A DNA stretch of 41,471 nucleotides from an uncultured bacterium (GTDB taxonomy: Bacteria; SAR324; NAC60-12): the NCBI GenBank assembly GCA_964010765.1, contig CAXGMD010000020.1, positions 1-41,471 on the forward strand, written 5' to 3'. The translations under genes and the position numbers were made by a program. The first letter of the stretch is position 1; the number at the start of each line of letters is the position of its first letter. A model generated the notes under the pieces. The model was not told the DNA's origin, ran no database searches, and worked only from the letters and a program-made list of their open reading frames with translations. Of this stretch, positions 26,606 through 41,471 are shown piece after piece.

Positions 26606-27655
26606 TCAGATTCTTTCTCCGGTTTGATTCGAAAACAAGAAGCATTTGCTAGCTTCAAACTGTACCCCAACAGCTTCATCGATATTTATTTTGAATTCTT
26701 TAGGGCCTCGTATCGTTAGCCGATCTGGCCCAACGTTGATGGTGGTCAAAGTCGATTCACCTGTTAACTCATGGGCGTAAACTGTTCCCTGAAGAACTCC
26801 TTTTTGAGCAGCACACAAAATTAAATCTTCAGGACGAATTCCAAGAGTTGCTTCTTCCAGGTTTGCTTCGTGGTTGATAGAGATTGAAAAATTTGGATGC
26901 TGAAAGTTGTTATCGTGAAGTTTTCCTTTCATTAAATTCATTGGTGGAGATCCAATAAATCCTGCTACGAAAAGATTTGCAGGATCATTGTAGATTTCTT
27001 CAGGTGGTCCCAGCTGCGAAATGATTCCATGATCCATCACTGCTACACGATCCGCCAGAGTCATTGCTTCAATTTGATCGTGTGTTACATAAACAGTTGT
27101 GATCTTCAGTTCATGCTGCAAATGCTTCAGTTCCGCACGCATTGTCACACGAAGTTTGGCATCAAGATTCGAAAGAGGCTCATCCATCAGAAAAACTGTT
27201 GGAGTCCTGACTATTGCTCTGGCCAAGGCAACTCTTTGACGTTGACCTCCGGAAAGTTCTCTGGGCTTGCGTTCAAGCAAATGATCCAATTGAACTTTTT
27301 CAGCAGCTTGCCGCACTTTTTCTGAATGCAGAGACTTGGGAACTTTACGGACTTTCAGTGGGTAGCGAATATTTTCATAAACGGACAGATGTGGATACAA
27401 ACCGTAGTTCTGGAAGACCATTGCTACATCACGATCCTTTGGAAGGTCGTCATTGACTTTACGATCACCAATAAAAACCTCTCCAAGGGTTGGTTCTTCG
27501 AGGCCGGCAATCATTCTCATCGTGGTTGTTTTGCCACATCCTGAGGGCCCCAACAGCACCAAAAATTCCTGATCCTCAATCAATAGGCTCAGATCTCTGA
27601 CTGCAACAAATTCATTCCAGCGCTTCGTAATACCTTTTAAGGTCACAGATGCCAT
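26606..27655 (-). CDS. CUT1 sugar ABC transporter ATP-binding protein (MalK/UgpC-like)
   Basis: GPSGCGKT, VFQNY, LSGGQRQR, DEPLSNLDAKLR, VTHDQ, FIGSPPMN. Confidence 0.95.
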   Translation of the reverse strand: MASVTLKGITKRWNEFVAVRDLSLLIEDQEFLVLLGPSGCGKTTTMRMIAGLEEPTLGEVFIGDRKVNDDLPKDRDVAMVFQNYGLYPHLSVYENIRYPLKVRKVPKSLHSEKVRQAAEKVQLDHLLERKPRELSGGQRQRVALARAIVRTPTVFLMDEPLSNLDAKLRVTMRAELKHLQHELKITTVYVTHDQIEAMTLADRVAVMDHGIISQLGPPEEIYNDPANLFVAGFIGSPPMNLMKGKLHDNNFQHPNFSISINHEANLEEATLGIRPEDLILCAAQKGVLQGTVYAHELTGESTLTTINVGPDRLTIRGPKEFKINIDEAVGVQFEASKCFLFSNQTGERI

Positions 27656-27668
27656 CAGTAAGTCCTAC

Positions 27669-28496
27669 TTATCTCACTGCGCCAAGGGTCATACCTTGGA
27701 CAAAATGTTTCTGGATGATCATTGCCAACCCAAACATTGGCAGCATGATTAGAATGCCAGCCGCAGAAATGAGATGCCACAGGACGCCCTCCTCAGCGTG
27801 AAAAAGTGATAAGCCCACCGGCATCGTAACCGCCTTACTATTAGTAATGATCACAGCGAAAAGAAATTCATTCCAAGCCAGAATGAAACAGAAAATTGCT
27901 GCCGTTAAGATTCCAGGCAAAGCCATGGGCAAAACAATATTCCAAATCACCTGAAGTCGACTCGAACCATCAACTAGGGCAGCTTCCTCAGTATCCAAAG
28001 GGATGCCATCAATGAATCCTTTGATCATCCAAATAGCAAAGGGGAGGATCAACGACAAATTAACTAGGACTAAGGCAAGCCTTGTATCCAGCAAACCCAA
28101 ATCTCTAAACAGAAGAAAGTAGGGAAGCACAATCACGACAGCTGGTACAAACTGAGTAGATAAGATCATCAGGAACATCGTGCGCTCGAATCTCAGCCGA
28201 AATCTTGAGAAGCTGTAAGCTGCCATTGTTGCCATTGGAATGGCAACAATAACGGTTGTTCCGGCAACTAGTGTGGAGTTGAGAAGTTTTTCGTGGAGAT
28301 TGTATGGGGAACGGAAAATTTCGTTGAAGTTGGCAAGTGTTGGAGTGAAGAGAAGCTTGAGTTGGAAAACATCAACTTGTTGTTTGAAAGCCCCGGAGGC
28401 AATCCAATAAATTGGAACGAGGATAACTACCGCTGCGCAAAGAATTAGCGCAAATTGAAAAAGATCCGCTACTTGTTTTCTAATTGAGTTGCCCAT
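27669..28496 (-). CDS. Carbohydrate ABC transporter permease (MalG-like)
   Basis: Six TM helices; EAA loop EEAALVDG; AWNEFLFA. Confidence 0.93.
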   Translation of the reverse strand: MGNSIRKQVADLFQFALILCAAVVILVPIYWIASGAFKQQVDVFQLKLLFTPTLANFNEIFRSPYNLHEKLLNSTLVAGTTVIVAIPMATMAAYSFSRFRLRFERTMFLMILSTQFVPAVVIVLPYFLLFRDLGLLDTRLALVLVNLSLILPFAIWMIKGFIDGIPLDTEEAALVDGSSRLQVIWNIVLPMALPGILTAAIFCFILAWNEFLFAVIITNSKAVTMPVGLSLFHAEEGVLWHLISAAGILIMLPMFGLAMIIQKHFVQGMTLGAVR

Positions 28497-29401
28497 CAGC
28501 GTTTCAGGAAAACAAGTTTCATGTAAAGCCAGGTCAACCCTAGCATTGGAATCACCAAAAGATAGGAAACTGCTGAGGCATAGCCCATATCATAATACTT
28601 GAACCCGTGGAAATAGATGTAATGAGCCAGAGTTTGGGTGGCATTACCTGGCCCTCCATTAGTCAACATGTAGACCTGATCAAACATCTTCAGGGAGAAA
28701 ATACTCTTCAGAATAATCCCCACTGCCAGAACGGGTATCAGAGCTGGCAAAGTAACATCTACAAATACTCTCCAACTGGAAGCTCCATCAATCATTGCCG
28801 CTTCTTGTGCGTCCCGGGGCACGTTAGCCAACCCTCCTATGAATACAAGCGTCAAATAGGGTGTCCAATGCCAAACGTCACTACCAATAATTGCAATCAG
28901 AGCGAAGGTAGGGTCTCCAAGCCAATCCACATCTGCCAGACCCGGCACTACGGCACCAAAGACAGCCTGAAACAAGCCAAAATCAGGTTGGAACATGAAC
29001 CGCCAAGAAATTCCAATCAGCGCAGGACTCATGGCAAATGGAAGAATGAGCAGTGTCCTCACAGTCAATCTGAACTTGCCTCCTGGAGCAAGCAGAAGAG
29101 CCAACCCCAAAGCCAAACCGACAGACACAATTACTGAAGCGAACATAAAAGTGGTTGTGACCTGCACGGAATTCCAGAGTAGGTCATCTTCTAGGGCTCG
29201 CTGGTAATTCTCTAAGAGGTAGGGCCAGGTTTCCCAGCCATCAAATTCTGGTTCCCAGAGAGGTCTCGACTCACGAGCTCGACTGAGTTTCCATTCTCGA
29301 AAGCTGAGCCAGAATGATTGGAGCAACGGCCAAAAGGACGTAACCAACACCAACACCAATGCCGGTAAAACGAATAGGTATTTAAGGTGTCGGTCACGCA
29401 T
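28496..29401 (-). CDS. Carbohydrate ABC transporter permease (MalF/UgpA-like)
   Basis: WHWTPY, EAAMIDGAS, FDQVYMLTNGGPG, GYASA. Confidence 0.93.
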   Translation of the reverse strand: MRDRHLKYLFVLPALVLVLVTSFWPLLQSFWLSFREWKLSRARESRPLWEPEFDGWETWPYLLENYQRALEDDLLWNSVQVTTTFMFASVIVSVGLALGLALLLAPGGKFRLTVRTLLILPFAMSPALIGISWRFMFQPDFGLFQAVFGAVVPGLADVDWLGDPTFALIAIIGSDVWHWTPYLTLVFIGGLANVPRDAQEAAMIDGASSWRVFVDVTLPALIPVLAVGIILKSIFSLKMFDQVYMLTNGGPGNATQTLAHYIYFHGFKYYDMGYASAVSYLLVIPMLGLTWLYMKLVFLKR

Positions 29402-29413
29402 TTTCAGACCGAA

Positions 29414-30730
29414 TCAGTAACCAGCTCTTCGTAGAATACGTTCTGCTCGCTGGCCTGCTTCTGCCATCAATTCCTCGACATTACCCCCCGTGGAGGCTTT
29501 TTGAATCGCATTCGAAAGCAAGTCTCCAATTTCAGGCCATTCAGGGATCTGAGGCATGATGTCAGAATTCGCAAGACTCAGAGCGGCGGCTTGCTGAATG
29601 TTGTCATTCGCAGCATTTACCTCAGGATCTACAAGGCTCTGCTTGTGGGTAACGACATTGTTCACGATTGCCTCACCCGCGACCTCTCGTTCAATGGCAT
29701 TTCTTCGGTCAAGCTCTGGATTAGAGAGCCACTTCAAGAACTCCCAGCTTGCCTCCTGGTTCTTTGAATGCTTCGAAATACTGAAAGGCATGCTGATCGC
29801 GTAAGTTACCGTTTCCCCCTTGTAGGAAGGCATCCCTATGAAAGCAACCTGCTCCTTCGACAAAGTAGACTGATTGGGGTTGTAGAATCCACTATAAGCC
29901 CACCACCAAACTGGGATCATAGCTGCTTTCCCTTGCGAAAATTGGATCCTTGCATCCTGTTCCACATTCGAAACAGCACCCTCCCCACAGATATCGTCAG
30001 AGGTATGCATTTCGATGTAGTCTTTGGTTGCTTGAATCGCTGCTGCAGTTGTCCAAGCGGGTTTCATTTGACTGTCAAAAACATCTCCTCCTGCTGCCCA
30101 GAGGTAGTTCAGCCAAATAAACAGGTTTTGTCTGTTGCCATCAGCCCCATAGTAACAGGCGAGTCCCCCAATTCCCTCTTTCTCCTTGATCATTTTCCCT
30201 GCGCTGACGACGTCAGCCCAAGTCTTTGGCTCACTCAGTCCATGCTTATCGAACAGATCTTTGCGATAGAACATTAACTGGGGATGGGCACGCAATGGGA
30301 ACCCTAAGGTTTCTCCCTGAAACATTGCACTCTTTTTAAATGCTTCAGGATAGCGATCCATGCTTATGCCATCTTGCTTTAACCATCCATCGATTGGTTG
30401 AAGCCAATAAGCATTTGCAGGCCCCCAGGAATCTAAATAGTTCACCACATCAAAATTACCATCAGCAGCTACTCCGACACTTGCTACCTTCTCCTGAAGG
30501 GAGACGAATGGGATATGAGTCCAATTAACAGTAATGCCTGTCAGGCTTTCAAACTCTTCATCCCGCAACTCGTAGGCTTTAAACTGTGGAGTGACAACCG
30601 AAAGAATATTTAAATTTGTACCAGCGTAAGGTTTTCCAGATTTAAGACCATAAGGAAGAATATTTTCAGCCGCAAACACGCTTGAAGCCATTAAGGAGCC
30701 ACACAAGAGGGCACAAAAGGTTTTCCACAT
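29414..30730 (-). CDS. Sugar ABC transporter substrate-binding protein (family 1)
   Basis: Signal peptide from ATG 30730 with GGAG upstream; FYRKDLF, PKTW, FSQGKAAM, WEFLKWL motifs. Confidence 0.9.
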   Translation of the reverse strand: MWKTFCALLCGSLMASSVFAAENILPYGLKSGKPYAGTNLNILSVVTPQFKAYELRDEEFESLTGITVNWTHIPFVSLQEKVASVGVAADGNFDVVNYLDSWGPANAYWLQPIDGWLKQDGISMDRYPEAFKKSAMFQGETLGFPLRAHPQLMFYRKDLFDKHGLSEPKTWADVVSAGKMIKEKEGIGGLACYYGADGNRQNLFIWLNYLWAAGGDVFDSQMKPAWTTAAAIQATKDYIEMHTSDDICGEGAVSNVEQDARIQFSQGKAAMIPVWWWAYSGFYNPNQSTLSKEQVAFIGMPSYKGETVTYAISMPFSISKHSKNQEASWEFLKWLSNPELDRRNAIEREVAGEAIVNNVVTHKQSLVDPEVNAANDNIQQAAALSLANSDIMPQIPEWPEIGDLLSNAIQKASTGGNVEELMAEAGQRAERILRRAGY

Positions 30731-30764
30731 TTTCAACTCCAAAAATTTATGAAAACAAAAAATG

Positions 30765-30780
30765 ATGAATGCCTATGCAA
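30765..30780. promoter_or_regulatory. Degenerate second copy of putative LacI-family operator
   Basis: ATGAATGCCTATGCAA matches TTGCATAGCTATGCAA at 12 of 16 positions; lies ~35 nt upstream of the SBP start. Confidence 0.5.
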
Positions 30781-30877: not shown

Positions 30878-30893
30878 TTGCATAGCTATGCAA
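30878..30893. promoter_or_regulatory. Putative operator of the local LacI-family regulator
   Basis: Perfect 16-bp palindrome TTGCATAGCTATGCAA, 30 nt upstream of the ATG at 30924, within the divergent control region. Confidence 0.7.
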
Positions 30894-30923: not shown

Positions 30924-32201
30924 ATGATTCAGTATCTGAAAGAAGGGAGAAGTGCAGCAGATGCGAAGGCTGATCAATCAAAAGTTCGCCAGACTGTAGA
31001 ACAGATCCTTGCAGAGATAGAGTTGCGCGGGGACGCTGCTGTTCGGGAACTGGCTCAGAAATTTGATGGATGGACTCTTCCAAACTTCCGACTTAGTCCA
31101 GATGAAATTCAAGCTGCTTTAGGGGAGGTACCTAAATCTACCTTAGATGATATTCGCTTTGCCCAGACACAGATTCGTAATTTTGCCCAGATTCAGCGCT
31201 CAGCTTTACAAGATGTAGAAGTCGAAACGCTCCCAGGCGTTATTCTTGGCCATAAAAACCTCCCGGTAAACAGCGTCGGCTGTTATGTGCCTGGTGGGAA
31301 ATATCCAATGGTGGCCTCGGCTCACATGAGCGTGGTCACAGCAAAAGTTGCGGGAGTTCCGAGAATTATTGCATGTGCACCACCCTTTGAGGGCCGCCCA
31401 CATCCAGCAATCATTGCTGCAATGCACCTCGGTGGAGCTGATGAAATTTATTGTCTTGGGGGAGTGCAGGCAGTGGGGTCCATGGCTTTGGGAACAGAAT
31501 CGATAAAAGCCGTTGATATGTTAGTGGGGCCTGGAAATGCCTTTGTGGCAGAAGCGAAGAGGCAACTTTATGGTAGAGTCGGCATCGATCTTTTCGCTGG
31601 TCCCACAGAAACACTCATCATTGTTGATGAAAGTTGTGATGGGGAGCTTTGTGCTGCGGACCTGCTTGGCCAAGCTGAGCATGGTCTAAACTCGCCAGCA
31701 ATCCTTCTCACCAATTCTGAGAAACTCGCCAGAGAGACCATGGAAGAAGTCGAACGACAGCTAAAGATTCTTCCAACTGGCGAAATTGCTGGACAAGCTT
31801 GGCGGGATTTTGGACAAGTAATTGTCTGTGAAAGTTACGATGAAATGGTCACTAAAGCCGATGAAATTGCTTCTGAACACGTTCAAGTGATGACAAGGGA
31901 TCCCAACTTTTTCTTGGAAAGGATGACCAACTACGGAGCTTTATTCCTTGGCAAGGAAACGAATGTCGCCTACGGAGATAAAGTTATCGGAACGAACCAC
32001 ACACTCCCAACAAACAAGGCAGCTCGTTACACTGGAGGATTGTGGGTTGGTAAATTCCTCAAGACCTGCACCTACCAGTGGGTGAAGACACCTGAAGCGA
32101 GTACTCTAATTGGTGAATACTGCTCGAGACTCTGTGCTCTTGAAAACTTTGCGGGCCATAAGGAACAAGCAGACATTCGTGTTCGGCGCTACAAGCAGTG
32201 A
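30924..32201 (+). CDS. hisD: Histidinol dehydrogenase-family protein, probably a non-biosynthetic paralog (HpsN-like)
   Basis: [43 protein letters not shown]. Has GDKVIG and [13 protein letters not shown] instead of the canonical HisD GDYxAG and YPSSVLM; catabolic gene context. Confidence 0.85.
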
Positions 32202-32223: not shown

Positions 32224-33285
32224 GTGGCTGAACGAAAAGTGAACGCAACCTCCACACAAGTGGCAAAATTAGCCGGGGTCTCTCAGTCAGCTGTTTCAAG
32301 AGCATTCACCCCTGGGGCAAGCATCGCCGAGAGTACCAGAAGAAAGGTTCTGCAGGCTGCCAGGAAGCTTGGCTATCAACCGAATGCGATCGCAAGAAGT
32401 CTAAGTACCAAGCGCTCTAAGATTATCGGGATCGTGATCGCTAATGTGACTACAAATCCCTTCTACCCGGAAGTCTTGGATGCCCTTAGTCGCCAATTCC
32501 AACAAAGGGGGCAACGAGTCATGCTCTTTGTTGTCACACGTGATCAAAACTTGGACGACATCCTCCCCCAACTTCTGGAATATCGTGTTGATGGAATTCT
32601 TCTCACAGCGGCAACACTCAGTTCCGCAATGGCTCATGAATGCGCACGCTTGGGTGTTCCAGTAACGTTGTTCAATCGTTCTGTTCCAGATGCCCATGCA
32701 AGCTCTTTTTGTTGCGACAATATTGAGGGGGGCCGAATGGCCGCAAGGCTTTTAATGAAATCTGGACATCATCAAGTAGCTTTCGTAGCAGGGAGTCATG
32801 ACACATCCACAAGTCTTGAGCGGGAAAGAGGATTCAGAGAAGAATTGAAAAAACATGGACTGGAACCCTATATCGAAATGGGGAATTTCAGCTATCATGG
32901 TGCATTTGACGCAGCTAGAAGATTAATGAACCTTCCAAAATCACCTGACGCAGTTTTTTGCGCTAATGACATCATGGCAATCGGGGTTTTGGATGCGCTT
33001 TGCCATGCCGAGCAGAAAAGAGTGCCTGAAGATGTATCCGTTATTGGTTTTGATGATATTCCAATGGCCGCCTGGCCCAGCTACAATCTAACTACCATTC
33101 GGCAACCCATTGAAAGAATGATCGATTCCGCAGTCAATGATCTTCTTGATCGCATAAACCAAGACAACATGGCCCCAAAGCAAGAGTTAGTTGCTGGAGA
33201 TTTAGTTGTCCGTTCTTCAGCAAAGTTACCCTCAGGACTTTCATCTGGTTGGGTAATTTCAACTTCTGAAACCAGAAATGTCTGA
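32224..33285 (+). CDS. LacI-family transcriptional regulator
   Basis: HTH VAKLAGVSQSAVSRAF, LGYQPNAIARSL, NPFY, FCANDIMAIG, VIGFDDI, LTTIRQP. Confidence 0.95.
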   Translation: MAERKVNATSTQVAKLAGVSQSAVSRAFTPGASIAESTRRKVLQAARKLGYQPNAIARSLSTKRSKIIGIVIANVTTNPFYPEVLDALSRQFQQRGQRVMLFVVTRDQNLDDILPQLLEYRVDGILLTAATLSSAMAHECARLGVPVTLFNRSVPDAHASSFCCDNIEGGRMAARLLMKSGHHQVAFVAGSHDTSTSLERERGFREELKKHGLEPYIEMGNFSYHGAFDAARRLMNLPKSPDAVFCANDIMAIGVLDALCHAEQKRVPEDVSVIGFDDIPMAAWPSYNLTTIRQPIERMIDSAVNDLLDRINQDNMAPKQELVAGDLVVRSSAKLPSGLSSGWVISTSETRNV

Positions 33286-34207
33286 GCATTCAACAATGAA
33301 ACTCATTGACGCTCACCACCATCTCTGGGAACCACAGGCGTTGCCTTATGGGTGGCTGCGCCAGCTTGGCCAACCAAAGCCATTCGGCGATCCCACGGCG
33401 ATTCAACGAAATTATCTTCCTAAAGATTACCTCGACGATGCTGGACAAGCTGAAGACGTTGAGTTGATTTCGACCGTGCATGTTCAGGCGGATGGAGCGC
33501 TGCCAGATCCGGTAGCTGAAACTCTTTGGTTGGAGAGCCTCAAATCCACTATCCCTTCCGCAATTGTTGGATTCGCTGACTTGGCAAGTCCTGATTTACC
33601 CAAAGTTTTGGAAGGACATGCCCAATCTCCTCGATTCCGTGGTGTTCGTCAAATCATCGGAAAACTGGCTGACCGCCCGGATCTTTCTTTCACCTTAGAC
33701 GATCTACTTGAAAAATCTGCCTGGCAAAATGGGTTTTCCCTTTTGAAGGAATTTAATCTGAGTTTCGATCTGCAACTCTATCCTGAACAAATGGAAGGTG
33801 CTGCTCAGTTTTTGGGAAAGCATCCGGAAACAAAAGTCGTGATCGATCATGCCGGTTGTCCTTATGACCAAACTGATCAAGGTCTTGAACTTTGGGGAGT
33901 TGGTGTAGAACAGCTTTCTCAACTCGAGAACGTGCATGTCAAACTTTCAGGCTTTGGGATGTATACCAAGGATTGGGATGCTGAAAATACAGAAAGAATT
34001 TTTCAAAAGTTATATCAAACTTTTGGAGCAGGGCGCTTGATGTGGGGGAGCAACTTTCCTGTTGATCGACTGATGCAGAGTTATGGACATTGTGTAAAGC
34101 AACTTCAGACTTGGTTAGCTTCCCTTTCTAAAGATGAGCAAGATGATATAGCTTGGCGCTCAGCTGCGAAGTTTTATCGTCTGGACATAGGCAAGTCTCA
34201 TGGCTGA
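33278..34207 (+). CDS. Amidohydrolase_2 family protein (COG3618, sugar-lactonase-like)
   Basis: IDAHHHLW, FRGVRQ, SFDLQ, IDHAG, VKLSG, MWGSNFPVD. Confidence 0.85.
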   Translation: MSEHSTMKLIDAHHHLWEPQALPYGWLRQLGQPKPFGDPTAIQRNYLPKDYLDDAGQAEDVELISTVHVQADGALPDPVAETLWLESLKSTIPSAIVGFADLASPDLPKVLEGHAQSPRFRGVRQIIGKLADRPDLSFTLDDLLEKSAWQNGFSLLKEFNLSFDLQLYPEQMEGAAQFLGKHPETKVVIDHAGCPYDQTDQGLELWGVGVEQLSQLENVHVKLSGFGMYTKDWDAENTERIFQKLYQTFGAGRLMWGSNFPVDRLMQSYGHCVKQLQTWLASLSKDEQDDIAWRSAAKFYRLDIGKSHG

Positions 34208-35252
34208 TCTTGAACTACGAAAAATTTGGAAGCGCTGGGGTGATTTTGTTGCTGTCAGGGATTTTGAGCTGGAGATCTCTGACCGGGAATTCTTGGTCCT
34301 GCTAGGACCTTCAGGTTGTGGCAAAACGACCACAATGAGGATGATCGCTGGGTTAGAAGATCCGACTTCGGGGGAAATTTTCATCGGTGGGAGAAGGGTC
34401 AACGACTTGGAGCCCAAGGATCGGGATGTGTCGATGGTCTTCCAGAACTACGGTTTGTATCCAAATCTGAATGTCTACGACAACATCTGTTTTCCGCTCA
34501 AGGTCAGAAAAGTTCGGAAGGCAGAGCAGGATCAGCGTGTTCGAAAGGCTGCCGGCATGGTCGAACTCAACGACTTGCTGGACCGACGCCCTGCCGAACT
34601 ATCTGGGGGTCAAAGACAACGGGTTGCTCTGGCTCGAGCCATTGTTCGGGAACCCAATGTCTTTCTGATGGACGAACCACTCTCCAATCTGGATGCGAAG
34701 CTGAGGATCTCGACTCGGGCTCAGATCAAAAACCTCCAATATGAGCTACAGGTCACCACGGTTTACGTAACTCACGACCAAACAGAAGCAATGACTCTCG
34801 CTGACCGAGTTGTTGTGATGAATCACGGAGAAATTCAACAAGTTGGGTCTCCCTTGGAGATTTACGATCGGCCCCAAAATGTTTTTGTTGCAGGTTTCAT
34901 TGGAAGCCCTCCGATGAACCTGATCGAGGGGAGCATTCAGGAAGGCCAATTCGTTTGTGAACTGAACAAAGGTTTTCCGCTATCGGGACCTGAAGGCCCG
35001 ATAACGCTTGGTTTTCGTGCAGAGGACGCCGAAATCATCTCGGAAGGTGGTCAATTGAAGGGGCTTGTATACGCAATGGAATTGCTGGGCGATGCCACCC
35101 TGATCACCTTGCGAACCGGGGGCAGCTTGGTGTGTGTCAAGATGCCGAAAGATTTTCGAGCCACGATGGGACAGGAACTGCCGGTCTTTTTAAAACCAGC
35201 TGCCTGCCATCTTTTTGAGAAGGATTCAGGACACCGTCTGAATAAATCCTGA
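34200..35252 (+). CDS. CUT1 sugar ABC transporter ATP-binding protein (second copy)
   Basis: GPSGCGKT, LSGGQRQR, DEPLSNLDAKLR, VTHDQ, FIGSPPMN. Confidence 0.95.
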   Translation: MADLELRKIWKRWGDFVAVRDFELEISDREFLVLLGPSGCGKTTTMRMIAGLEDPTSGEIFIGGRRVNDLEPKDRDVSMVFQNYGLYPNLNVYDNICFPLKVRKVRKAEQDQRVRKAAGMVELNDLLDRRPAELSGGQRQRVALARAIVREPNVFLMDEPLSNLDAKLRISTRAQIKNLQYELQVTTVYVTHDQTEAMTLADRVVVMNHGEIQQVGSPLEIYDRPQNVFVAGFIGSPPMNLIEGSIQEGQFVCELNKGFPLSGPEGPITLGFRAEDAEIISEGGQLKGLVYAMELLGDATLITLRTGGSLVCVKMPKDFRATMGQELPVFLKPAACHLFEKDSGHRLNKS

Positions 35253-35283
35253 ATCCAACAATTTTTTTCCTACGAGAGGAACC

Positions 35284-36501
35284 ATGATGAAAAAATTCCT
35301 GACGATCGCGGTCACCCTGTCAGCCTTCGTGGCTGTTCCAATGATAGGCTTCGCCGCCTGTGATTTTAAACCTTCCAGTAAGGTGAGTTTACTGGCAAAC
35401 AGTTTTGCTGCCTGGAAAGCCGTCTCTGATGCAATGAGCGAATGTGGAAATTTTGAAGCAGAATTAGATGCAGAGTTTAGGAAAAAACAGCCGGATGCAT
35501 TTGCTGCAAATCCTTCACTTTACCAACTTGGTGGGGTTTCCAATGGAACGATTCAACCTCTACTGTCTGCTGGCACCATTCGGCCACTTAATGATCTGGT
35601 AGCCAAGTATGGTAAAGATCTTCAACCCAATCAGTTGATTCGTATCAATGGACAAATCATGGCGATCGCTATGATGGTGAACAATCAACACTTGATGTAC
35701 CGAGAGGATATCTTCAAATCTTTGGGATTGGAGGTGCCAACTACTTACTTTGAGTTGCTTTCAGCAGCGGACAAAGTAGCTGCTTCGGGAAAAGTTCAAT
35801 ATGCTTTGGGCGGAACCTACAAAGCCGGATGGAACTTAGCTGAGGAGTTCGTGAATATGTACATGGGTATGGGAGGCGATTTTTTTGATGGATCCAAACC
35901 ATCTATAAATAACGTAATGGGTATCCGCACACTTGAAATGATGCGTAATCTAACCCACTACATGGATCCAGAGTACCTTGTTGCAGATTCCACTTATGTT
36001 CAGCAGCAGTTCCAACAGGGTAAAATTGCAATGGCAGTTTTGTGGGCTACGAGGGCCGCAGCAATGGATGATGCCAAGGAAAGCCAGGTTGTAGGAAAAG
36101 TTAAGATGGCTGCCGCACCATCCCCTGTATCGGGAGCGCTGCCTGCCTCAACACTCTGGTGGGATGGAGTTGTGCTTGCCAAGAATATGACAGACCAGCA
36201 AGCGGATGAGGCCTTTCAGCTATTGATGGAAGGAATCGACCGTGAAATGGTCACTAATAACAACGATGCTGCTGTCTGGTTGATCAATGGCTATAAACCT
36301 GGCCCCATGGCAATGGGGGCCGCTGAAACAGCTGAAAACGGTGCCTTACCTTATCCAAATGGAGTTGAAATGGGTTTGATGCACACCGCTCTCGGAAATA
36401 ACGTTGCAGATTTCCTTAAAGGCAAAGAGACAGCTGAGCAAACGCTTTTGGACATTGAGGCAGAATACACAACCGCAGCCAAAGAAAAAGGATTGCTCTA
36501 A
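35284..36501 (+). CDS. Sugar ABC transporter substrate-binding protein
   Basis: RBS GAGGA; signal peptide; LMYREDIF, PTTY, FQQGKIAM; position within an ABC cassette. Confidence 0.88.
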   Translation: MMKKFLTIAVTLSAFVAVPMIGFAACDFKPSSKVSLLANSFAAWKAVSDAMSECGNFEAELDAEFRKKQPDAFAANPSLYQLGGVSNGTIQPLLSAGTIRPLNDLVAKYGKDLQPNQLIRINGQIMAIAMMVNNQHLMYREDIFKSLGLEVPTTYFELLSAADKVAASGKVQYALGGTYKAGWNLAEEFVNMYMGMGGDFFDGSKPSINNVMGIRTLEMMRNLTHYMDPEYLVADSTYVQQQFQQGKIAMAVLWATRAAAMDDAKESQVVGKVKMAAAPSPVSGALPASTLWWDGVVLAKNMTDQQADEAFQLLMEGIDREMVTNNNDAAVWLINGYKPGPMAMGAAETAENGALPYPNGVEMGLMHTALGNNVADFLKGKETAEQTLLDIEAEYTTAAKEKGLL

Positions 36502-36516
36502 AGCAAGTTCGATCCT

Positions 36517-37545
36517 ATGAAGCATCGGACTTTTATTGGATTTATTGGCCCATCTTTGTTTTTAATGGCCCTGTTTATTGCAGGGCCATTATTCAGTGTT
36601 TTCTGGCAGAGTCTTCATGTCACTCAACCAATCTATATTCAGGTGGAGACTGAAGTTTGTACTCCCGGTTTCCTATCCCAAAAGTGTACAACTGAAATTC
36701 AAACTCAACCTCAAATGGGGCCTGATGGCAAGATCATCACAGAAACTAAATTTGCTGGTTTTGAAAGTTATCGATCTTTACTCAAACCGGAATTATTTTT
36801 AAAACACTTCTCGCAACAGGAATGGTCTGAATTAAATAATATCAATTTTTACAAGGCACTACGCTTCACACTCACATTCACCTTGATAACACTCCCCATC
36901 GTCCTAATTCTGGGATTGCTCATCGCCCTGAGTGTCAACCAAGCTTTGCAATCACTTCGAGGGCCAATCATCTTCATTTCGTTACTTCCTTTTGTGATTA
37001 CACCCGTTATTGGCGCTCTATCCATTCGTTGGCTTTTTGTTGGAGACGGTATTCTTACCACTTTATTTGAGTGGTTATTGGAAAGAGACATATCCATGTT
37101 CGCGCAGGGTTGGACCATTGAAATTTTGATGTTGGGCTATCGGGTTTGGCACGTTGCACCATTTGCCTTCATTGTATTTTATGCCGGTCTTCAAACGGTT
37201 AGTCGTGATACTCTTGAAAGTGCCATTGTCGATGGAGCGACCCGCTGGCAAAGGCTAAGGCTGGTGATTTTACCTCACCTAAGTCCGCTGATACTCTTTG
37301 TAAGCATTATCCATCTAATGGATTCCTACCGGGTTTTCGAAGAGGTTATTGGTTTCCGCAGTGAAGCCCACGTTATCTCACTCCAGTGGCTCACCTACGA
37401 TCTACTAATTCCAGATGACACGGGCAACCGTCTAATCAGCAGAGCTTCTGCCTCCTCGATGCTGACCATGATTGGCATAATTCTTCTGTTGATCTTCCCG
37501 TTGCGCCGAAGTTGGCGTGAGCATAAGCTGCTTAAAAGGGGTTAA
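36517..37545 (+). CDS. Carbohydrate ABC transporter permease (MalF-like) with extended periplasmic loop
   Basis: WHVAPF, ESAIVDGA, DSYRVF; Cys-containing insert after TM1. Confidence 0.88.
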   Translation: MKHRTFIGFIGPSLFLMALFIAGPLFSVFWQSLHVTQPIYIQVETEVCTPGFLSQKCTTEIQTQPQMGPDGKIITETKFAGFESYRSLLKPELFLKHFSQQEWSELNNINFYKALRFTLTFTLITLPIVLILGLLIALSVNQALQSLRGPIIFISLLPFVITPVIGALSIRWLFVGDGILTTLFEWLLERDISMFAQGWTIEILMLGYRVWHVAPFAFIVFYAGLQTVSRDTLESAIVDGATRWQRLRLVILPHLSPLILFVSIIHLMDSYRVFEEVIGFRSEAHVISLQWLTYDLLIPDDTGNRLISRASASSMLTMIGIILLLIFPLRRSWREHKLLKRG

Positions 37546-37546
37546 G

Positions 37547-38695
37547 ATGCAAATGAACATCGAACACCCTAAAAGCATCCAACTTTCAAAATCCCTCAAG
37601 ATACTCAGCAACGGATTTCTGGGCATTTGGTGTCTGATCGCGGTTTTTCCGCTGCTCTGGATTACGTTGATGAGCCTGAAGTATCCTCTTGATGCTTTCT
37701 CAGCCAATCCGCTGGTGGTGATTTTTGGCCCAGGAACACTATCCGCTGGTGCTTCAATCAACTTATTCGATTTGCTGTTGGTAATTCTTTGGGTGGTGGT
37801 GGCATCTCTGGGAATAAAACGCTGGCAGGCAGAAAAAAATCTGGGATCCAAAAATTGGTTGTACCTTGTTATCTCAATCGGATGGCTTTTTGCTGCTGTT
37901 GTCTTTACTGAGCTTAGTGTTGCTTTGAAGGAGCTGCTGGGAGCCGACTTTTTCTTAATGACTCCCTTGTTGGGGATGACCACTGAGCATTTCCAATCAG
38001 TTTGGATCGAACAGGAATTCTACAGACAATTCTTGAATTCACTGCTTGTAACTACCGGAGTCGTCAGCATTTCGCTGACAGTGGGAACATTGGCGGGCTA
38101 TGGATTGGCTCGCTCTGGTTCAAACTGGGCATTCTGGATTCTCATGACTGCCCTGGTTTTCCGGGCTCTACCACACTCTGTGCTGGTTTCTGGCTACCTC
38201 CCATGGTTCATCAATTCAGCCGAATGGCTACGACCTATTTTTGGCGAAGCCGCACCGACCTTATATGGCCAACCTTGGGCGATCATTGTGGTTCTCGCAT
38301 CGATCAACCAGCCTTTCACAATCTGGATGCTCCGTTCATTCTTTCAGAACATCCCAAGGGAATTGGATGAAGCGGCGCGTATTGATGGCTGTTCGCATGG
38401 AGAAGCCTTTGTGCGAGTGATAATTCCAGTCATGTGGCCGGGAGTCCTGACAGCAGGACTTTTCAGTTTTTTACTGGCTTACAACGACTACTTGGTTGCG
38501 GCTCTGTTGCTGGATGCCCAAAACCAGACGATGGTTCCCGCGATTTCTGGATACTTCAATCGTGAAACAACCTCGACAGACCAGGTGGAAGCCGTCGCTG
38601 CAGCAGTATCGATTACCGCACCACTTTTTGTTTTGGTAATGGTCTTTCAAAAGCAACTCGTTTCTGGCCTGACTCAAGGGGCCGTCAAGGGTTGA
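37547..38695 (+). CDS. Carbohydrate ABC transporter permease (MalG-like) with hydrophobic insertion
   Basis: FLNSLLVT, IWMLRSFFQNIPRELDEAARIDG, LAYNDY, GLTQGAVKG; ATG 37547 preferred. Confidence 0.88.
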   Translation: MQMNIEHPKSIQLSKSLKILSNGFLGIWCLIAVFPLLWITLMSLKYPLDAFSANPLVVIFGPGTLSAGASINLFDLLLVILWVVVASLGIKRWQAEKNLGSKNWLYLVISIGWLFAAVVFTELSVALKELLGADFFLMTPLLGMTTEHFQSVWIEQEFYRQFLNSLLVTTGVVSISLTVGTLAGYGLARSGSNWAFWILMTALVFRALPHSVLVSGYLPWFINSAEWLRPIFGEAAPTLYGQPWAIIVVLASINQPFTIWMLRSFFQNIPRELDEAARIDGCSHGEAFVRVIIPVMWPGVLTAGLFSFLLAYNDYLVAALLLDAQNQTMVPAISGYFNRETTSTDQVEAVAAAVSITAPLFVLVMVFQKQLVSGLTQGAVKG

Positions 38696-38723: not shown

Positions 38724-39230
38724 GTGGAAGAAAACGATAACAAGCAACTAATCGCAGATATGTATGGAGCCATGAACAAGAATGTACTTGGCCTGATGAA
38801 GAAATATTGGTTTGAAGACATGGTTTGGGAAGGGCCCGCTGGAGTGGGTACCAAACATGGATTGCAAGAGTTTGAAGAAGACTACCGTCGAGATTTCATC
38901 AATGCCTTCCCAGACAAGCATGCTACGGATTTGGTGCGTGTTGCTGAGGGGGATTGGGTAGCTGGAGCTGGTCATCAAGACACTACTTTTGCCAATTCAT
39001 GGCTGGGTATTCCACCGACCGGCCAGAAGATTCGCATTCGCTATATGGATTTTTGGAGGATTGCCAAAGATGAGTCAACTGGAGAAAGAAAACTCGCTGA
39101 AAATCTTGTGTTGATCGATATTTTGGGGGTCCTCGAACAAGCTGGTTATGATGTTGAAAAAGTCCTTAAGTTCGTTGGCTCTAAATCCCCTCAATTTTTT
39201 TTGAACCCTCCAGAATCAGATAATGAATGA
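38724..39230 (+). CDS. SnoaL-like / ester cyclase family protein (single domain)
   Basis: WEGPAG, AFPD, AEGDWV, WLGIPPTG, DFWR, EN.VLID..GVLEQ.G; GTG start. Confidence 0.8.
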   Translation: MEENDNKQLIADMYGAMNKNVLGLMKKYWFEDMVWEGPAGVGTKHGLQEFEEDYRRDFINAFPDKHATDLVRVAEGDWVAGAGHQDTTFANSWLGIPPTGQKIRIRYMDFWRIAKDESTGERKLAENLVLIDILGVLEQAGYDVEKVLKFVGSKSPQFFLNPPESDNE

Positions 39231-40279
39231 GCATATTTAAATTCAATAGTGAGCTAAATCAGCAGCATAAACAGTTAGTTTGGGACTATTGGCATAACGC
39301 AGCCTGGCAAAATCCTGCGGACATTCAAAAGCATCTGCTGCAATACCAGAATCAGGATGCCAATTGGTTTGGTTTTTCGCCGTTCAACCAATTGTCTTCA
39401 CCAACTGCACAGGTTGATGAATTTTGGCTTCCGCTCTACAAGGCGTTCTCGGATCTTCAGCGGCAGACCCATATCTTTATCGGGGGCAGTTCCAGTGGCA
39501 AAGCCGATGGCAGTCCAGATAATCGTTACTGGGTGGGAGGAACTGGGCTTTTCAAGGGGGTGTTTCAACAAGATTGGCAAATCAGTCACTTAAGAATTCC
39601 TGCCAACCAGCAACCTATCCAGATCCGTTGGGCAGAATTCTGTCGATTTGAAGAAGCAAGGATTGTTGAGACTTACCTGATGCTCGATCTCGTTGATTTC
39701 TTTGAACAGATCGGGCATCCCATTCTGCCACCCTGTAGGGGAGTGCCAGGAATTTACCCAGTACCGATTACTCAAGATGGGGTGCTGAGAGACATGCAGG
39801 AACAAGCTGTTACCGAGGCGAGTCTTCAATTGATTCGAGATTTCCTGTTTGAGGGCCTGAACCTTTATGATCAACATAACCTCAAAAGTATGGGGGTTGC
39901 GGACTTTTTTCATCAGGATGTCAAATGGTACGGTCCCGGAGGAATTGGCGGTTGTCTCAGTCTGAAAGCTTTTGAGGATAACCATCAAAAACCTTGGCTG
40001 ATTGCTTTTCCAGACCGCAAAGTTTGTGACTTGGATTCGCTCTTTGCTGAAGGAAACTACGTTGCTAGTTCTGGTTGGAAGGGGGTAATAGCCAAACATA
40101 CTGGGCCATACCTTGGACATCCTGCAAGTGACAAGGATATCTGCTTCAACGGTATCGATTTCTGGAGAAGCGAATCCGGGAAGTACGTCGAAAACTGGGT
40201 CTTTGTAGACATGATCCATCTGTTTGGACAGATGGGAATTGATCTATTAAAACGCTTGAATTTTGAGGGAGAGCGCTGA
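39227..40279 (+). CDS. SnoaL-like / ester cyclase family protein (two domains)
   Basis: N-domain AFSDL...IPA...F.RFEE.RIVE...D; C-domain WYGPGGIG, AFPD, AEGNYV, HTGPYLG.PAS, DFWR, ENWVFVD. Confidence 0.8.
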   Translation: MSIFKFNSELNQQHKQLVWDYWHNAAWQNPADIQKHLLQYQNQDANWFGFSPFNQLSSPTAQVDEFWLPLYKAFSDLQRQTHIFIGGSSSGKADGSPDNRYWVGGTGLFKGVFQQDWQISHLRIPANQQPIQIRWAEFCRFEEARIVETYLMLDLVDFFEQIGHPILPPCRGVPGIYPVPITQDGVLRDMQEQAVTEASLQLIRDFLFEGLNLYDQHNLKSMGVADFFHQDVKWYGPGGIGGCLSLKAFEDNHQKPWLIAFPDRKVCDLDSLFAEGNYVASSGWKGVIAKHTGPYLGHPASDKDICFNGIDFWRSESGKYVENWVFVDMIHLFGQMGIDLLKRLNFEGER

Positions 40280-41247
40280 TGTCAGCACCAGAATTGGAAT
40301 TTGCTGATCTGACAGATTTTATTCTGAGGATCACCGAGAGAATTTGGGAAGAGAGGCACGTTGAAGACATCCGCAAATACTACACTGCGGATTGTCGGGT
40401 AGAGACACCAGCAGGGGTTACTTCGAATGTGGAAGCAGTCATTCAATCCACTTTGGAAACGTTGAATCAGTTTCCTGACCGTCAACTGCTGGGTGAAGAT
40501 GTAATCTGGTCCGAAGACCAACCTGAATATTTCTACTCTTCTCATCGAATCTTCTCCACCATGACTCACCTTGGCGAGGGGAACTTTGGCAAAGGTACCG
40601 GAGCAAAAATTGGTGTTAGGACGATTGCTGACTGTGCTGTCTACAAAAATCAGATTTACGATGAATGGCTTGTTAGAGATCATGCAGCAATCCTGAGCGA
40701 TATAGGTCTGCCACTACAAGAAGTTGCGCTTTCACTGGCGGAAGCAAGAGCTGAATCTGGGCAGAAACCTATTCACTTCCATAGTCTTGAGAATCGACCA
40801 AAAGTTGACGGAATAAACTTGTCAGACACAGATGCTGCTCAGCATTATCTCCGAGGTTACAGAAGCTTGTTTGATGAATACGCCTTCGGCTGGGTTAAAG
40901 AGAGCTATGACAGGGCTGCACAAATTTATGCTCCAGGGGGGATAAATCTTCAGGGCTGGGACAGGATAACCGATTTCTGGTTGGGACTCAGAGCCAGTTT
41001 AGGTCAAGTAAAGTTTACAGCCGACCACTTGATTCATCGTGAGGATCCAAGAGAGCCTCAGCGGCTCGCCCTGCGCTGGACTGTAACCGGACAGCATGAA
41101 GGAAGAGGCCGATATGGAGAACCACGAGGCAACCCACTTCATTTTTTGGGTATCAGTCACGCAGAATTACGCAAAGGAAAGATTTTACGCGAATGGGTTT
41201 TGCTGGATGAACTGGCAATTTGGCAGCAAATTTTTTCTAAATTTTGA
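40279..41247 (+). CDS. SnoaL-like / NTF2-fold protein (two domains)
   Basis: IWEER, FPDRQLLGEDVIW, THLGEGNFGKGTG, DEWLVRD; second domain RWTVTGQHEG.G.YG.P.G...REW.LLDE. Confidence 0.78.
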   Translation: MSAPELEFADLTDFILRITERIWEERHVEDIRKYYTADCRVETPAGVTSNVEAVIQSTLETLNQFPDRQLLGEDVIWSEDQPEYFYSSHRIFSTMTHLGEGNFGKGTGAKIGVRTIADCAVYKNQIYDEWLVRDHAAILSDIGLPLQEVALSLAEARAESGQKPIHFHSLENRPKVDGINLSDTDAAQHYLRGYRSLFDEYAFGWVKESYDRAAQIYAPGGINLQGWDRITDFWLGLRASLGQVKFTADHLIHREDPREPQRLALRWTVTGQHEGRGRYGEPRGNPLHFLGISHAELRKGKILREWVLLDELAIWQQIFSKF

Positions 41248-41280: not shown

Positions 41281-41471
41281 ATGGATATTGTTCGCTTCAA
41301 TGAACTGATCCCCTGTCGCACCGCCTTCATCGATGCGCACACCCCAGGTTCGGATCAGAAAGAAAATTACACCATCATTGGCGCAGGGGTCTCAGAATCA
41401 CCTGATCAGCACGTTCATCTCAGTAAAACTCCCGGTTTCAATATTGGGGCAGCCGCACAACCTGCAGGGTG
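41281..41471 (+). CDS. Probable cupin-domain protein (3' truncated by window)
   Basis: Not in the supplied ORF track. Hand translation MDIVRFNELIPCRTAFIDAHTPGSDQKENYTIIGAGVSESPDQHVHLSKTPGFNIGAAAQPAG is open to the window end; AGGA upstream. The cupin call is from recalled similarity; the metal motif lies beyond the window. Confidence 0.6.
   Translation, partial: MDIVRFNELIPCRTAFIDAHTPGSDQKENYTIIGAGVSESPDQHVHLSKTPGFNIGAAAQPAG

Follow-up and report, generated by a model that had tools for sequence, protein, structure and literature searches.

What does a member of the histidinol dehydrogenase family do when it heads an operon that looks catabolic? This question is raised by an open reading frame (ORF) at 30924..32201 (+) of a 41,471-nucleotide stretch of DNA from an uncultured SAR324 bacterium (contig CAXGMD010000020.1), referred to here as the window. 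The ORF starts with ATG, comprises 425 codons and is preceded by an AGAGGA ribosome-binding site 5 nucleotides before the start codon. The original prediction, made from the DNA sequence, had described its product as a HisD paralog that is neither the canonical enzyme nor clearly HpsN, the dehydrogenase of 2,3-dihydroxypropane-1-sulfonate (DHPS), and had proposed a third substrate. On the evidence assembled here, the product is probably a Zn2+/NAD+-dependent dehydrogenase of the HisD/HpsN fold that belongs to a distinct clade, sister to HpsN, and catalyzes the four-electron oxidation of a non-sulfonated intermediate of the pathway encoded by its operon.

The window protein matches PF00815 with 461.8 bits over residues 14–420 and TIGR00069 with 448.9 bits, and its best solved relatives are the HpsN structures 8V35 (E 4e-120) and 8WWE, followed by HisD 4G07 (3e-80). 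The motifs quoted in the original prediction were all found in the 425-residue protein, with the two 13-residue substrate-proximal motifs at residues 123–135 and 351–363, QAEH at 250–253, SEH at 317–319 and GH at 411–412. The zinc and catalytic positions, which it had judged to be retained, are indeed invariant: Q250, H253, E318, H319, D352, H359 and H412 occur in all 119 clade members, all 11 HpsN-type and all 25 HisD-type sequences used for our residue statistics. Among the HpsN-type sequences are the named hpsN of C. pinatubonensis HN-2 and seven that come from relatives of the source genome. Residue D48, which corresponds to the Asp46 that accounts for the NAD+ preference of C. pinatubonensis HpsN (CpHpsN; Burchill et al. 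2024, PMC11382572), is kept in 119/119 clade homologues and invariant in all three groups. These features suggest an active, dimeric dehydrogenase that depends on Zn2+ and probably prefers NAD+. By analogy with HisD and HpsN, it would convert a primary alcohol via a bound aldehyde to the carboxylate at the expense of two NAD+, with a neighbouring hydroxyl (or amino) group of the substrate held on the zinc.

Separation from HisD and HpsN

The source genome (3.86 Mb, 266 contigs, 92% complete) contains three PF00815 genes, and one of them is the separate canonical hisD for which a check had been recommended. This gene (G000:C1:57665-58876) scores 537 bits against PF00815 and 509 bits against TIGR00069, carries GDYFAGPNHTLPT, has HisD structures as its best solved relatives (379 bits vs 211–225 for HpsN) and groups with GDY-type sequences in our tree; it lies outside any his operon. 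The tyrosine of the GDY motif, Tyr353, is invariant in HisD-type sequences (25/25), whereas the window protein has a lysine. Likewise, the published HisD loop G-S-A-P-L, with Tyr/Leu at the position equivalent to His126 of CpHpsN, reads G-K-Y-P-M in the window protein. The third PF00815 gene, on contig C16 (L003 1477-2835 (-); 429 bits, and 403 bits against TIGR00069), has altered metal-site residues, with IEAEH for QAEH and GNFSLGPNAVLPT for GD[YK]..G.NH.LPT. It adjoins two ATP-binding cassette (ABC) permease genes, occupies a long branch inside the HisD group and may be a non-canonical or inactive family member.

The distinction from HpsN lies in the residues around the substrate. The sulfonate coordinates the zinc in CpHpsN and is held by His126 and by Lys353, the latter through a hydrogen bond, and the motif G-R-Y-A/S-H ending in His126 distinguishes HpsN from HisD (PMC11382572). 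This histidine is present in 11/11 HpsN-type sequences and in none of the clade members: of the 119 close homologues, 63 have Leu and 56 have Met at the equivalent position, and of 80 related loci, 46 encode Leu and 34 encode Met. The latter are the best 80 of at least 595 loci in a contig collection with one genome per species; they total 1.38 Mb, and 47 of them are at least 19 kb long. The loop G-[KR]-[YF]-P-[LM], the GDK motif and His134 are each conserved in 80/80 loci, and Lys353 in 119/119 homologues. Directly after this lysine, positions 354–355 are Val-Ile throughout the clade (119/119), as against Ala/Cys/Thr followed by Ser/Ala in HpsN. The two groups also differ in the residues fixed at His110, His134, Trp374 and some 18 other positions, and the clade bears the motif GxYP[LM]xASAHM. 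Of the HpsN motifs given in the original prediction, the G-R-Y element is close to the published G-R-Y-A/S-H, but the threonine placed after GDK was less apt, since HpsN-type sequences mostly read GDK..GPNH (Pro in 9/11, Thr in 2/11). Two further candidate markers were discarded, an Arg-to-Lys change in the loop (position 126) because 19/80 loci retain Arg, and Ser226 because Thr occurs in both groups. As judged from these residues, the catalytic apparatus is intact, a more hydrophobic and remodelled pocket is predicted where HpsN holds the sulfonate, and the window protein is neither HisD nor HpsN.

To place the protein among its relatives, we drew on an HMMER scan of 1.84 billion cluster representatives, which gave 14,392 matches at E <= 0.001, and used the best 150 of these. 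The tree input consisted of full-length representatives, supplemented with the three paralogs of the source genome, two HpsN-type proteins encoded by relatives and the protein named HpsN in C. pinatubonensis. Before the first tree, eight representatives with frameshifts or truncations were left out, and the final tree was computed with IQ-TREE under LG+C20+F+G4 from 47 of 82 full-length rows, with support given as ultrafast bootstrap/Shimodaira–Hasegawa-like approximate likelihood ratio (UFBoot/SH-aLRT). The window clade is monophyletic (100/99) and was recovered in every one of 200 bootstrap trees. The HpsN clade, which contains the named C. pinatubonensis HpsN, has a support of 100/98 (100/95 when P0135 is included), and the node joining the two clades has 100/99. 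Quick trees of 74 and 47 rows showed the same topology. The HpsN side is anchored by P0129, whose score against 8V35 is 737 bits and which shares 72.6% identity with the annotated C. pinatubonensis hpsN. The phylogeny with HisD and HpsN that had been called for as a check consequently puts the window protein in a clade of its own, sister to the C. pinatubonensis HpsN clade and outside it.

The clade is widespread. The best 80 of the at least 595 loci encode proteins sharing 68–78% identity across Alpha-, Beta- and Gammaproteobacteria, Flavobacteriales, Saprospiraceae, an actinomycete metagenome-assembled genome and Bryobacterales, a level of conservation across phyla that suggests strong purifying selection. 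Four other sequences in the tree (P0135, P0141, P0143 and P0220) are of the GDK or SDK type, are devoid of the HpsN histidine and fall outside both the HpsN and the window clade. The HisD family thus seems to hold more orphan specificities than the three considered here.

The operon, its operator and related loci

The dehydrogenase heads an operon of co-oriented genes that are spaced by gaps of 22 nucleotides or overlap by at most 8. A LacI-family regulator (32224..33285 (+); PF00356 and Peripla_BP_3) begins 22 nucleotides past the dehydrogenase, and its stop is overlapped by 8 nucleotides by a lactonase-type Amidohydrolase_2 gene (33278..34207 (+); PF04909). These are followed by a CUT1-type ABC importer (34200..38695 (+)), composed of an ATPase (34200-35252), a binding protein (35284-36501) and two permeases (36517-37545 and 37517-38695), and by three SnoaL/NTF2-like proteins (38724..41247 (+); PF07366/PF12680), one single-domain (38724-39230) and two double-domain (39227-40279 and 40279-41247). 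The last gene is the 5′ end of a bicupin (41281..41471 (+), 63 codons), which is cut by the contig end. In the congener G005, contig C34 carries the same genes contiguously: a HisD-like dehydrogenase, LacI, amidohydrolase, four ABC genes, three SnoaL genes, bicupin, MetE-like and a short-chain dehydrogenase/reductase (SDR), at 70–96% identity. Contig C39 of the source genome opens with a MetE-like gene (66% identity to the cluster representative) and an SDR, and the G005 order indicates that the window operon continues there. The G005 bicupin matches a representative from another phylum at 56%.

Profile and structure searches tell little about the ligands of these partners. The sole strong solved relative of the amidohydrolase is 4DLF/4DNM ('Amidohydrolase 2', 71 bits), and its 114 bits against the NCBIfam model for L-fucono-1,5-lactonase lie under the cut-off of that model. 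The binding protein has remote solved relatives only (best 66 bits) and so gives no ligand clue; the same searches yielded none for the bicupin (no relative), the MetE-like protein (27 bits), the amidohydrolase or the RraA-type protein of Ruegeria (35 bits). The four importer genes are kept in G005 at 81–96% identity and occur in 6/80 related loci. Both permeases are long (342 and 392 residues), with BPD_transp_1 starting at residues 130 and 190, so that sizeable N-terminal extensions precede the domain. Scans of the 37 ORFs of the window with Pfam and NCBIfam detected no his gene, no hpsO/hpsP pair of SDR and medium-chain dehydrogenase/reductase and no tripartite ATP-independent periplasmic (TRAP) transporter, in line with what had been noted from the sequence. 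The first 22 kb of the window hold housekeeping genes (smpB, dprA, mreC, PBP2, maf and homoserine dehydrogenase).

Upstream of the dehydrogenase, about 30 bp before its start codon, lies a perfect palindrome, TGCATAGCTATGCA (30879..30892; 16 bp with the flanking T/A at 30878-30893). A second operator-like site with one mismatch, TGAATGCCTATGCA (30766-30779), is found in the same divergent intergenic region, beside a second CUT1 ABC importer (26606..30742 (-)). The exact palindrome is kept in congeners (L104, L109), and its core, TGCAT-N4-ATGCA, recurs across phyla. The 80 related loci contain it 30 times in their 1.38 Mb, where a site with 10 fixed bases would be expected about 1.3 times. It stands no more than 260 bp upstream of the dehydrogenase in 13/79 loci, and in 12 of the 29 loci that encode a LacI regulator. 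TGCAT-N4-ATGCA is likely a LacI-family operator, at which the adjacent LacI-type protein, presumably a repressor, would switch the operon. This regulator is 29% identical to that of the C. pinatubonensis hps cluster. Whether the divergent importer is part of the system is uncertain, and its binding protein adjoins the clade gene in 2/80 loci only. Contigs from four metatranscriptome-labelled runs span the whole 15 kb at 95–99% identity, with coverage of the two divergent operons and the sequence between them, and one contig bridges 29268-31252. As such contigs give neither strand nor level, and DNA carry-over is possible, we make no claim of expression.

Neighbours were counted by tblastn across the 80 related loci. 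By far the most frequent is an SDR of the gluconate-5-dehydrogenase type (54/80, in 26 cases within 100 bp of the dehydrogenase), followed by LacI (29/80), bicupin (20/80), MetE-like (13/80), HpcH/GarL-type aldolase (13/80), PF04199 cyclase/esterase (12/80), PcaD-like alpha/beta hydrolase (11/80) and the double-domain SnoaL protein B (11/80). None of the six 'core' partners is present in 44/80 loci, which indicates that the dehydrogenase, usually with the SDR, occurs in other settings too. SuyA and SuyB were found within 10 kb of the clade gene in 0/80 loci, and hpsP-like genes gave weak matches in 5/80 (25–36% identity). None of the recurrent neighbour clusters scanned with Pfam matched a family of the cuyA or xsc kind, although neither gene was searched for by name.

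Several cultured bacteria carry recognizable versions of the cluster. A plasmid of Ruegeria sp. AD91A has the full set, with an RraA-type aldolase replacing HpcH, and Sinorhizobium medicae pSymB combines an ABC importer, dehydrogenase, SDR, LacI, cupin, RraA-like protein, amidase, alpha/beta hydrolase and SnoaL; SnoaL homologues thus occur on both plasmids as well as in the related loci. A full cluster is likewise present on pSymB of Sinorhizobium meliloti. A minimal cluster is found on a Klebsiella michiganensis plasmid (L087), where LacI accompanies dehydrogenase, SDR, major facilitator superfamily (MFS) transporter, alpha/beta hydrolase, aldolase and cupin, and an IncFII plasmid of Salmonella Milwaukee (L085) carries LacI, the dehydrogenase and, after an unannotated gap, MFS. 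The presence of the minimal cluster on conjugative enterobacterial plasmids suggests that the module is horizontally mobile. On Novosphingobium aromaticivorans pNL2, the dehydrogenase–SDR pair lies within an aromatic-catabolic region.

Candidate substrates

Relatives of the source organism allow the clade gene to be compared with a true hpsN in closely similar genomes. We used the HpsN-type protein P0129 as a query against 30 relatives and the source genome. Congeners G003, G005 and G007 each have an HpsN-type copy (56–57% identity to P0129) together with a window-clade copy (48%), and G008 has an HpsN-type copy and a fragment of a window-clade copy. In the same-family genomes G010 and G016, two grades of match were distinguished by identity only (63% and 45%; 54% and 47%). 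The HpsN-type gene carries PGGRYSHIASAIM in G005 and GDKASGPNHVLPT in G007, and in both genomes it is set between a LacI gene and yeiH in the order dctP-dctQ-dctM-hpsN-hpsO-hpsP-suyA-suyB, in which dctPQM encode a TRAP transporter. The corresponding locus of the source genome (contig C2, L092 4220-9833) contains LacI, an hpsO without its first ~75 codons, hpsP, suyA, suyB and a yeiH-type exporter; its flanking proteins are 87–97% identical, and its SuyB is 67% identical to that of C. pinatubonensis. About 4.7 kb is absent here, comprising the TRAP genes, hpsN and the start of hpsO. Because G005 and G007 are intact at the same place, this segment seems to have been deleted in the source genome, or the region is mis-assembled. 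The source genome, 92% complete, yielded no further HpsN-like gene. The true hpsN has apparently been lost from the source organism, with an assembly error as a possible alternative.

Given the loss of the sulfonate-binding histidine and the setting of the gene, we favour a substrate that is neither histidinol nor a sulfonate, probably a non-sulfonated intermediate with a -C(OH)-CH2OH group that arises in the operon's own pathway, which the sugar-type ABC importer would feed. Several observations weigh against this view. The window protein is 47–48% identical to proven HpsN and retains Lys353, the residue that hydrogen-bonds the sulfonate in CpHpsN. The AlphaFold2 monomer has a mean predicted local distance difference test (pLDDT) score of 71.7 and falls below 50 across residues 336–388, which include the GDK loop, so the shape of the pocket is argued from sequence alone. 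The partner genes vary by genome, and the cluster of the source organism lacks the cl1-type SDR, aldolase and alpha/beta hydrolase, so that its pathway may be incomplete or different. Divergent, unclustered SAR11 homologues still act on DHPS (PMC11131964). A search of the full-text literature, with subscription journals and bioRxiv supplements outside its coverage, found no biochemical study of any clade member, and passages of PMC11382572, PMC11131964, PMC12814064 and PMC12904256 do not describe the clade or its gene cluster. Finally, the true hpsN appears lost while hpsP and suyAB are kept, and a stand-in role for the window enzyme can be argued.

The last point leads to the rival in which the protein functions as an HpsN isozyme, oxidizing DHPS (or sulfolactaldehyde) and supplying sulfolactate to the orphaned hpsP-suyAB on contig C2. 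Besides the state of that locus, with its truncated hpsO and no hpsN, its proponents could cite the 47% identity to C. pinatubonensis HpsN, the HpsN structures as best solved relatives, the shared Lys353 and A-S-A segment, the 'sulfopropanediol 3-dehydrogenase' label on clade relatives and the similar layout of the hps and Klebsiella clusters, in which LacI is accompanied by the N-type gene, an SDR and a transporter. We nevertheless consider it unlikely, since the published HpsN discriminator His126 is missing from every clade sequence (present in 0/80 loci and 0/119 homologues), suyAB are near none of the 80 loci, congeners retain a true hpsN beside the clade gene, and the window gene is embedded in an unrelated operon with which it shares an operator. 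Even less can be said for a second histidinol dehydrogenase, redundant or condition-specific, which we regard as highly improbable: the protein does pass the TIGR00069 cut-off for hisD (449 vs 243.8 bits), and RefSeq labels its relatives hisD, but the same model also passes proven-type HpsN and is uninformative on this point, the invariant tyrosine of GDY is a lysine, a canonical hisD already exists on contig C1, and there are no his genes nearby.

A different kind of alternative holds that the dehydrogenase and the SDR form a portable two-gene module acting on another small HO-CH2-CH(X)-CH2-Y compound, such as an amino-alcohol (e.g. cysteinolate), a C3–C4 diol-acid or a phosphonate analogue of DHPS, and not on a step of a SnoaL/bicupin pathway. 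The pair is the only widely conserved association (54/80) and is found in settings as unlike as SnoaL/MetE-like clusters, PF04199 cyclase/esterase loci (12/80), molybdenum hydroxylase clusters and the pNL2 aromatic-catabolic region; in addition, the six core partner families are all missing from 44/80 loci, an HpsN homologue of Bilophila oxidizes L-cysteinolate (PMC12814064), and Lys126 or Arg126 together with Lys353 would suit an anionic Y group. We see this as possible but rather improbable, as the cluster of the source genus lacks an SDR of that type but still begins with the dehydrogenase, the operator and LacI go together with the larger version of the cluster, and the changes toward hydrophobic residues in the pocket (Leu/Met129, Val354, Ile355) argue against a second anionic group.

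The preferred reading, a non-sulfonated intermediate of the operon's pathway, can also be made more specific. We tentatively suggest, as a proposal of low probability, that the enzyme acts on a C7-cyclitol core, the desmethyl-4-deoxygadusol/gadusol ring of mycosporine-like amino-acid sunscreens, and oxidizes the hydroxymethyl group borne by its tertiary carbinol carbon. In such a route the SnoaL proteins and amidases would strip the amino-acid arms, the MetE-like protein would remove the O-methyl group, the dehydrogenase would create a C(OH)(COO-) centre, and the cupin dioxygenase would open the aci-reductone ring between C2 and C3. On paper, the product would be 4-carboxy-4-hydroxy-2-oxoadipate, which the RraA-type or HpcH-type aldolase of the full clusters could cleave to pyruvate and oxaloacetate; this compound is the substrate of RraA-type (LigK) aldolases. 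The same literature search found no paper on mycosporine or gadusol catabolism, and passages of one review are silent on the topic. If true, mycosporine-like amino acids, a class of algal and cyanobacterial compounds abundant worldwide, would gain their first catabolic route, and the HisD family its first enzyme that acts on a tertiary-carbinol hydroxymethyl.

Mislabelling and comparison with known systems

The original prediction had anticipated that such proteins would be misannotated as hisD, and eight RefSeq plasmid records do name clade members 'hisD, histidinol dehydrogenase, GO:0000105', while JGI labels clade relatives 'sulfopropanediol 3-dehydrogenase'. TIGR00069, an 'equivalog_domain' model, is passed not only by the window protein but also by the canonical HisD (509 bits), an HpsN-type protein (423 bits) and the third paralog of the source genome (403 bits). 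It cannot separate these functions, which explains the systematic 'hisD' labels. The other label has consequences for ecology. An hpsN cut-off of 167 bits has been applied to Tara Oceans transcripts (PMC11131964), and clade members, which score about 390–415 bits against HpsN, would be counted as DHPS oxidation; estimates of marine sulfonate cycling based on bit-score counts of hpsN may be inflated. With relatives encoded at no fewer than 595 loci, both labels distort metabolic reconstructions. A practical discriminator is His versus Leu/Met at CpHpsN position 126, combined with Val-Ile after GDK. The clade appears to mark a conserved, repressor-controlled catabolic pathway, and its cultured carriers and defined operator make experiments feasible.

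Compared with HisD (EC 1.1.1.23; E. coli 1K75/1KAE, Brucella 4G07), the window protein shares the PF00815 family, the Gln/His/Asp/His′ zinc site and the Glu-His catalytic pair, and the two-step, two-NAD+ oxidation is presumably alike. The two differ in that the window gene belongs to a catabolic operon without his neighbours, and its product is 38% identical to the HisD of the same genome and lies on the opposite side of a 100/98 split in the tree.

HpsN, the 3-dehydrogenase of (R)-DHPS (C. pinatubonensis, 8V35; R. pomeroyi, 8WWE), is closer, with a similar fold and length, 47–48% identity, and the zinc and catalytic residues, Lys353, the A-S-A segment and the NAD+-preference Asp in common. 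What sets it apart is the sulfonate-binding His126, replaced by Leu or Met in every clade member checked, and positions 354/355, which are Val-Ile instead of small or polar. HpsN also co-exists with the clade gene in congeners G003, G005 and G007. A neighbourhood of hpsO (PF13561) and hpsP (PF00107/PF08240) served to define HpsN in a published sequence similarity network; the window gene has no such neighbourhood, and suyAB never lie beside a clade gene (0/80). At the same time, the clade gene is likewise often followed by an SDR, 35–39% identical to HpsO, and preceded by a LacI regulator, either divergent or adjacent, and a transporter, and the C. pinatubonensis hps cluster, with its LacI, dehydrogenase, SDR and transporter, parallels the clade cluster of Klebsiella in layout. 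A third comparison, made by description, is offered by the L-cysteinolate dehydrogenase of Bilophila sp. 4_1_30, an HpsN homologue that is also a PF00815 protein in a catabolic cluster and converts a 2-substituted primary alcohol to the acid (PMC12814064). Its substrate is a sulfonate and its gene is clustered with cuyA, cuyB and cuyC, whereas nothing alike lies near the genes of the window clade.

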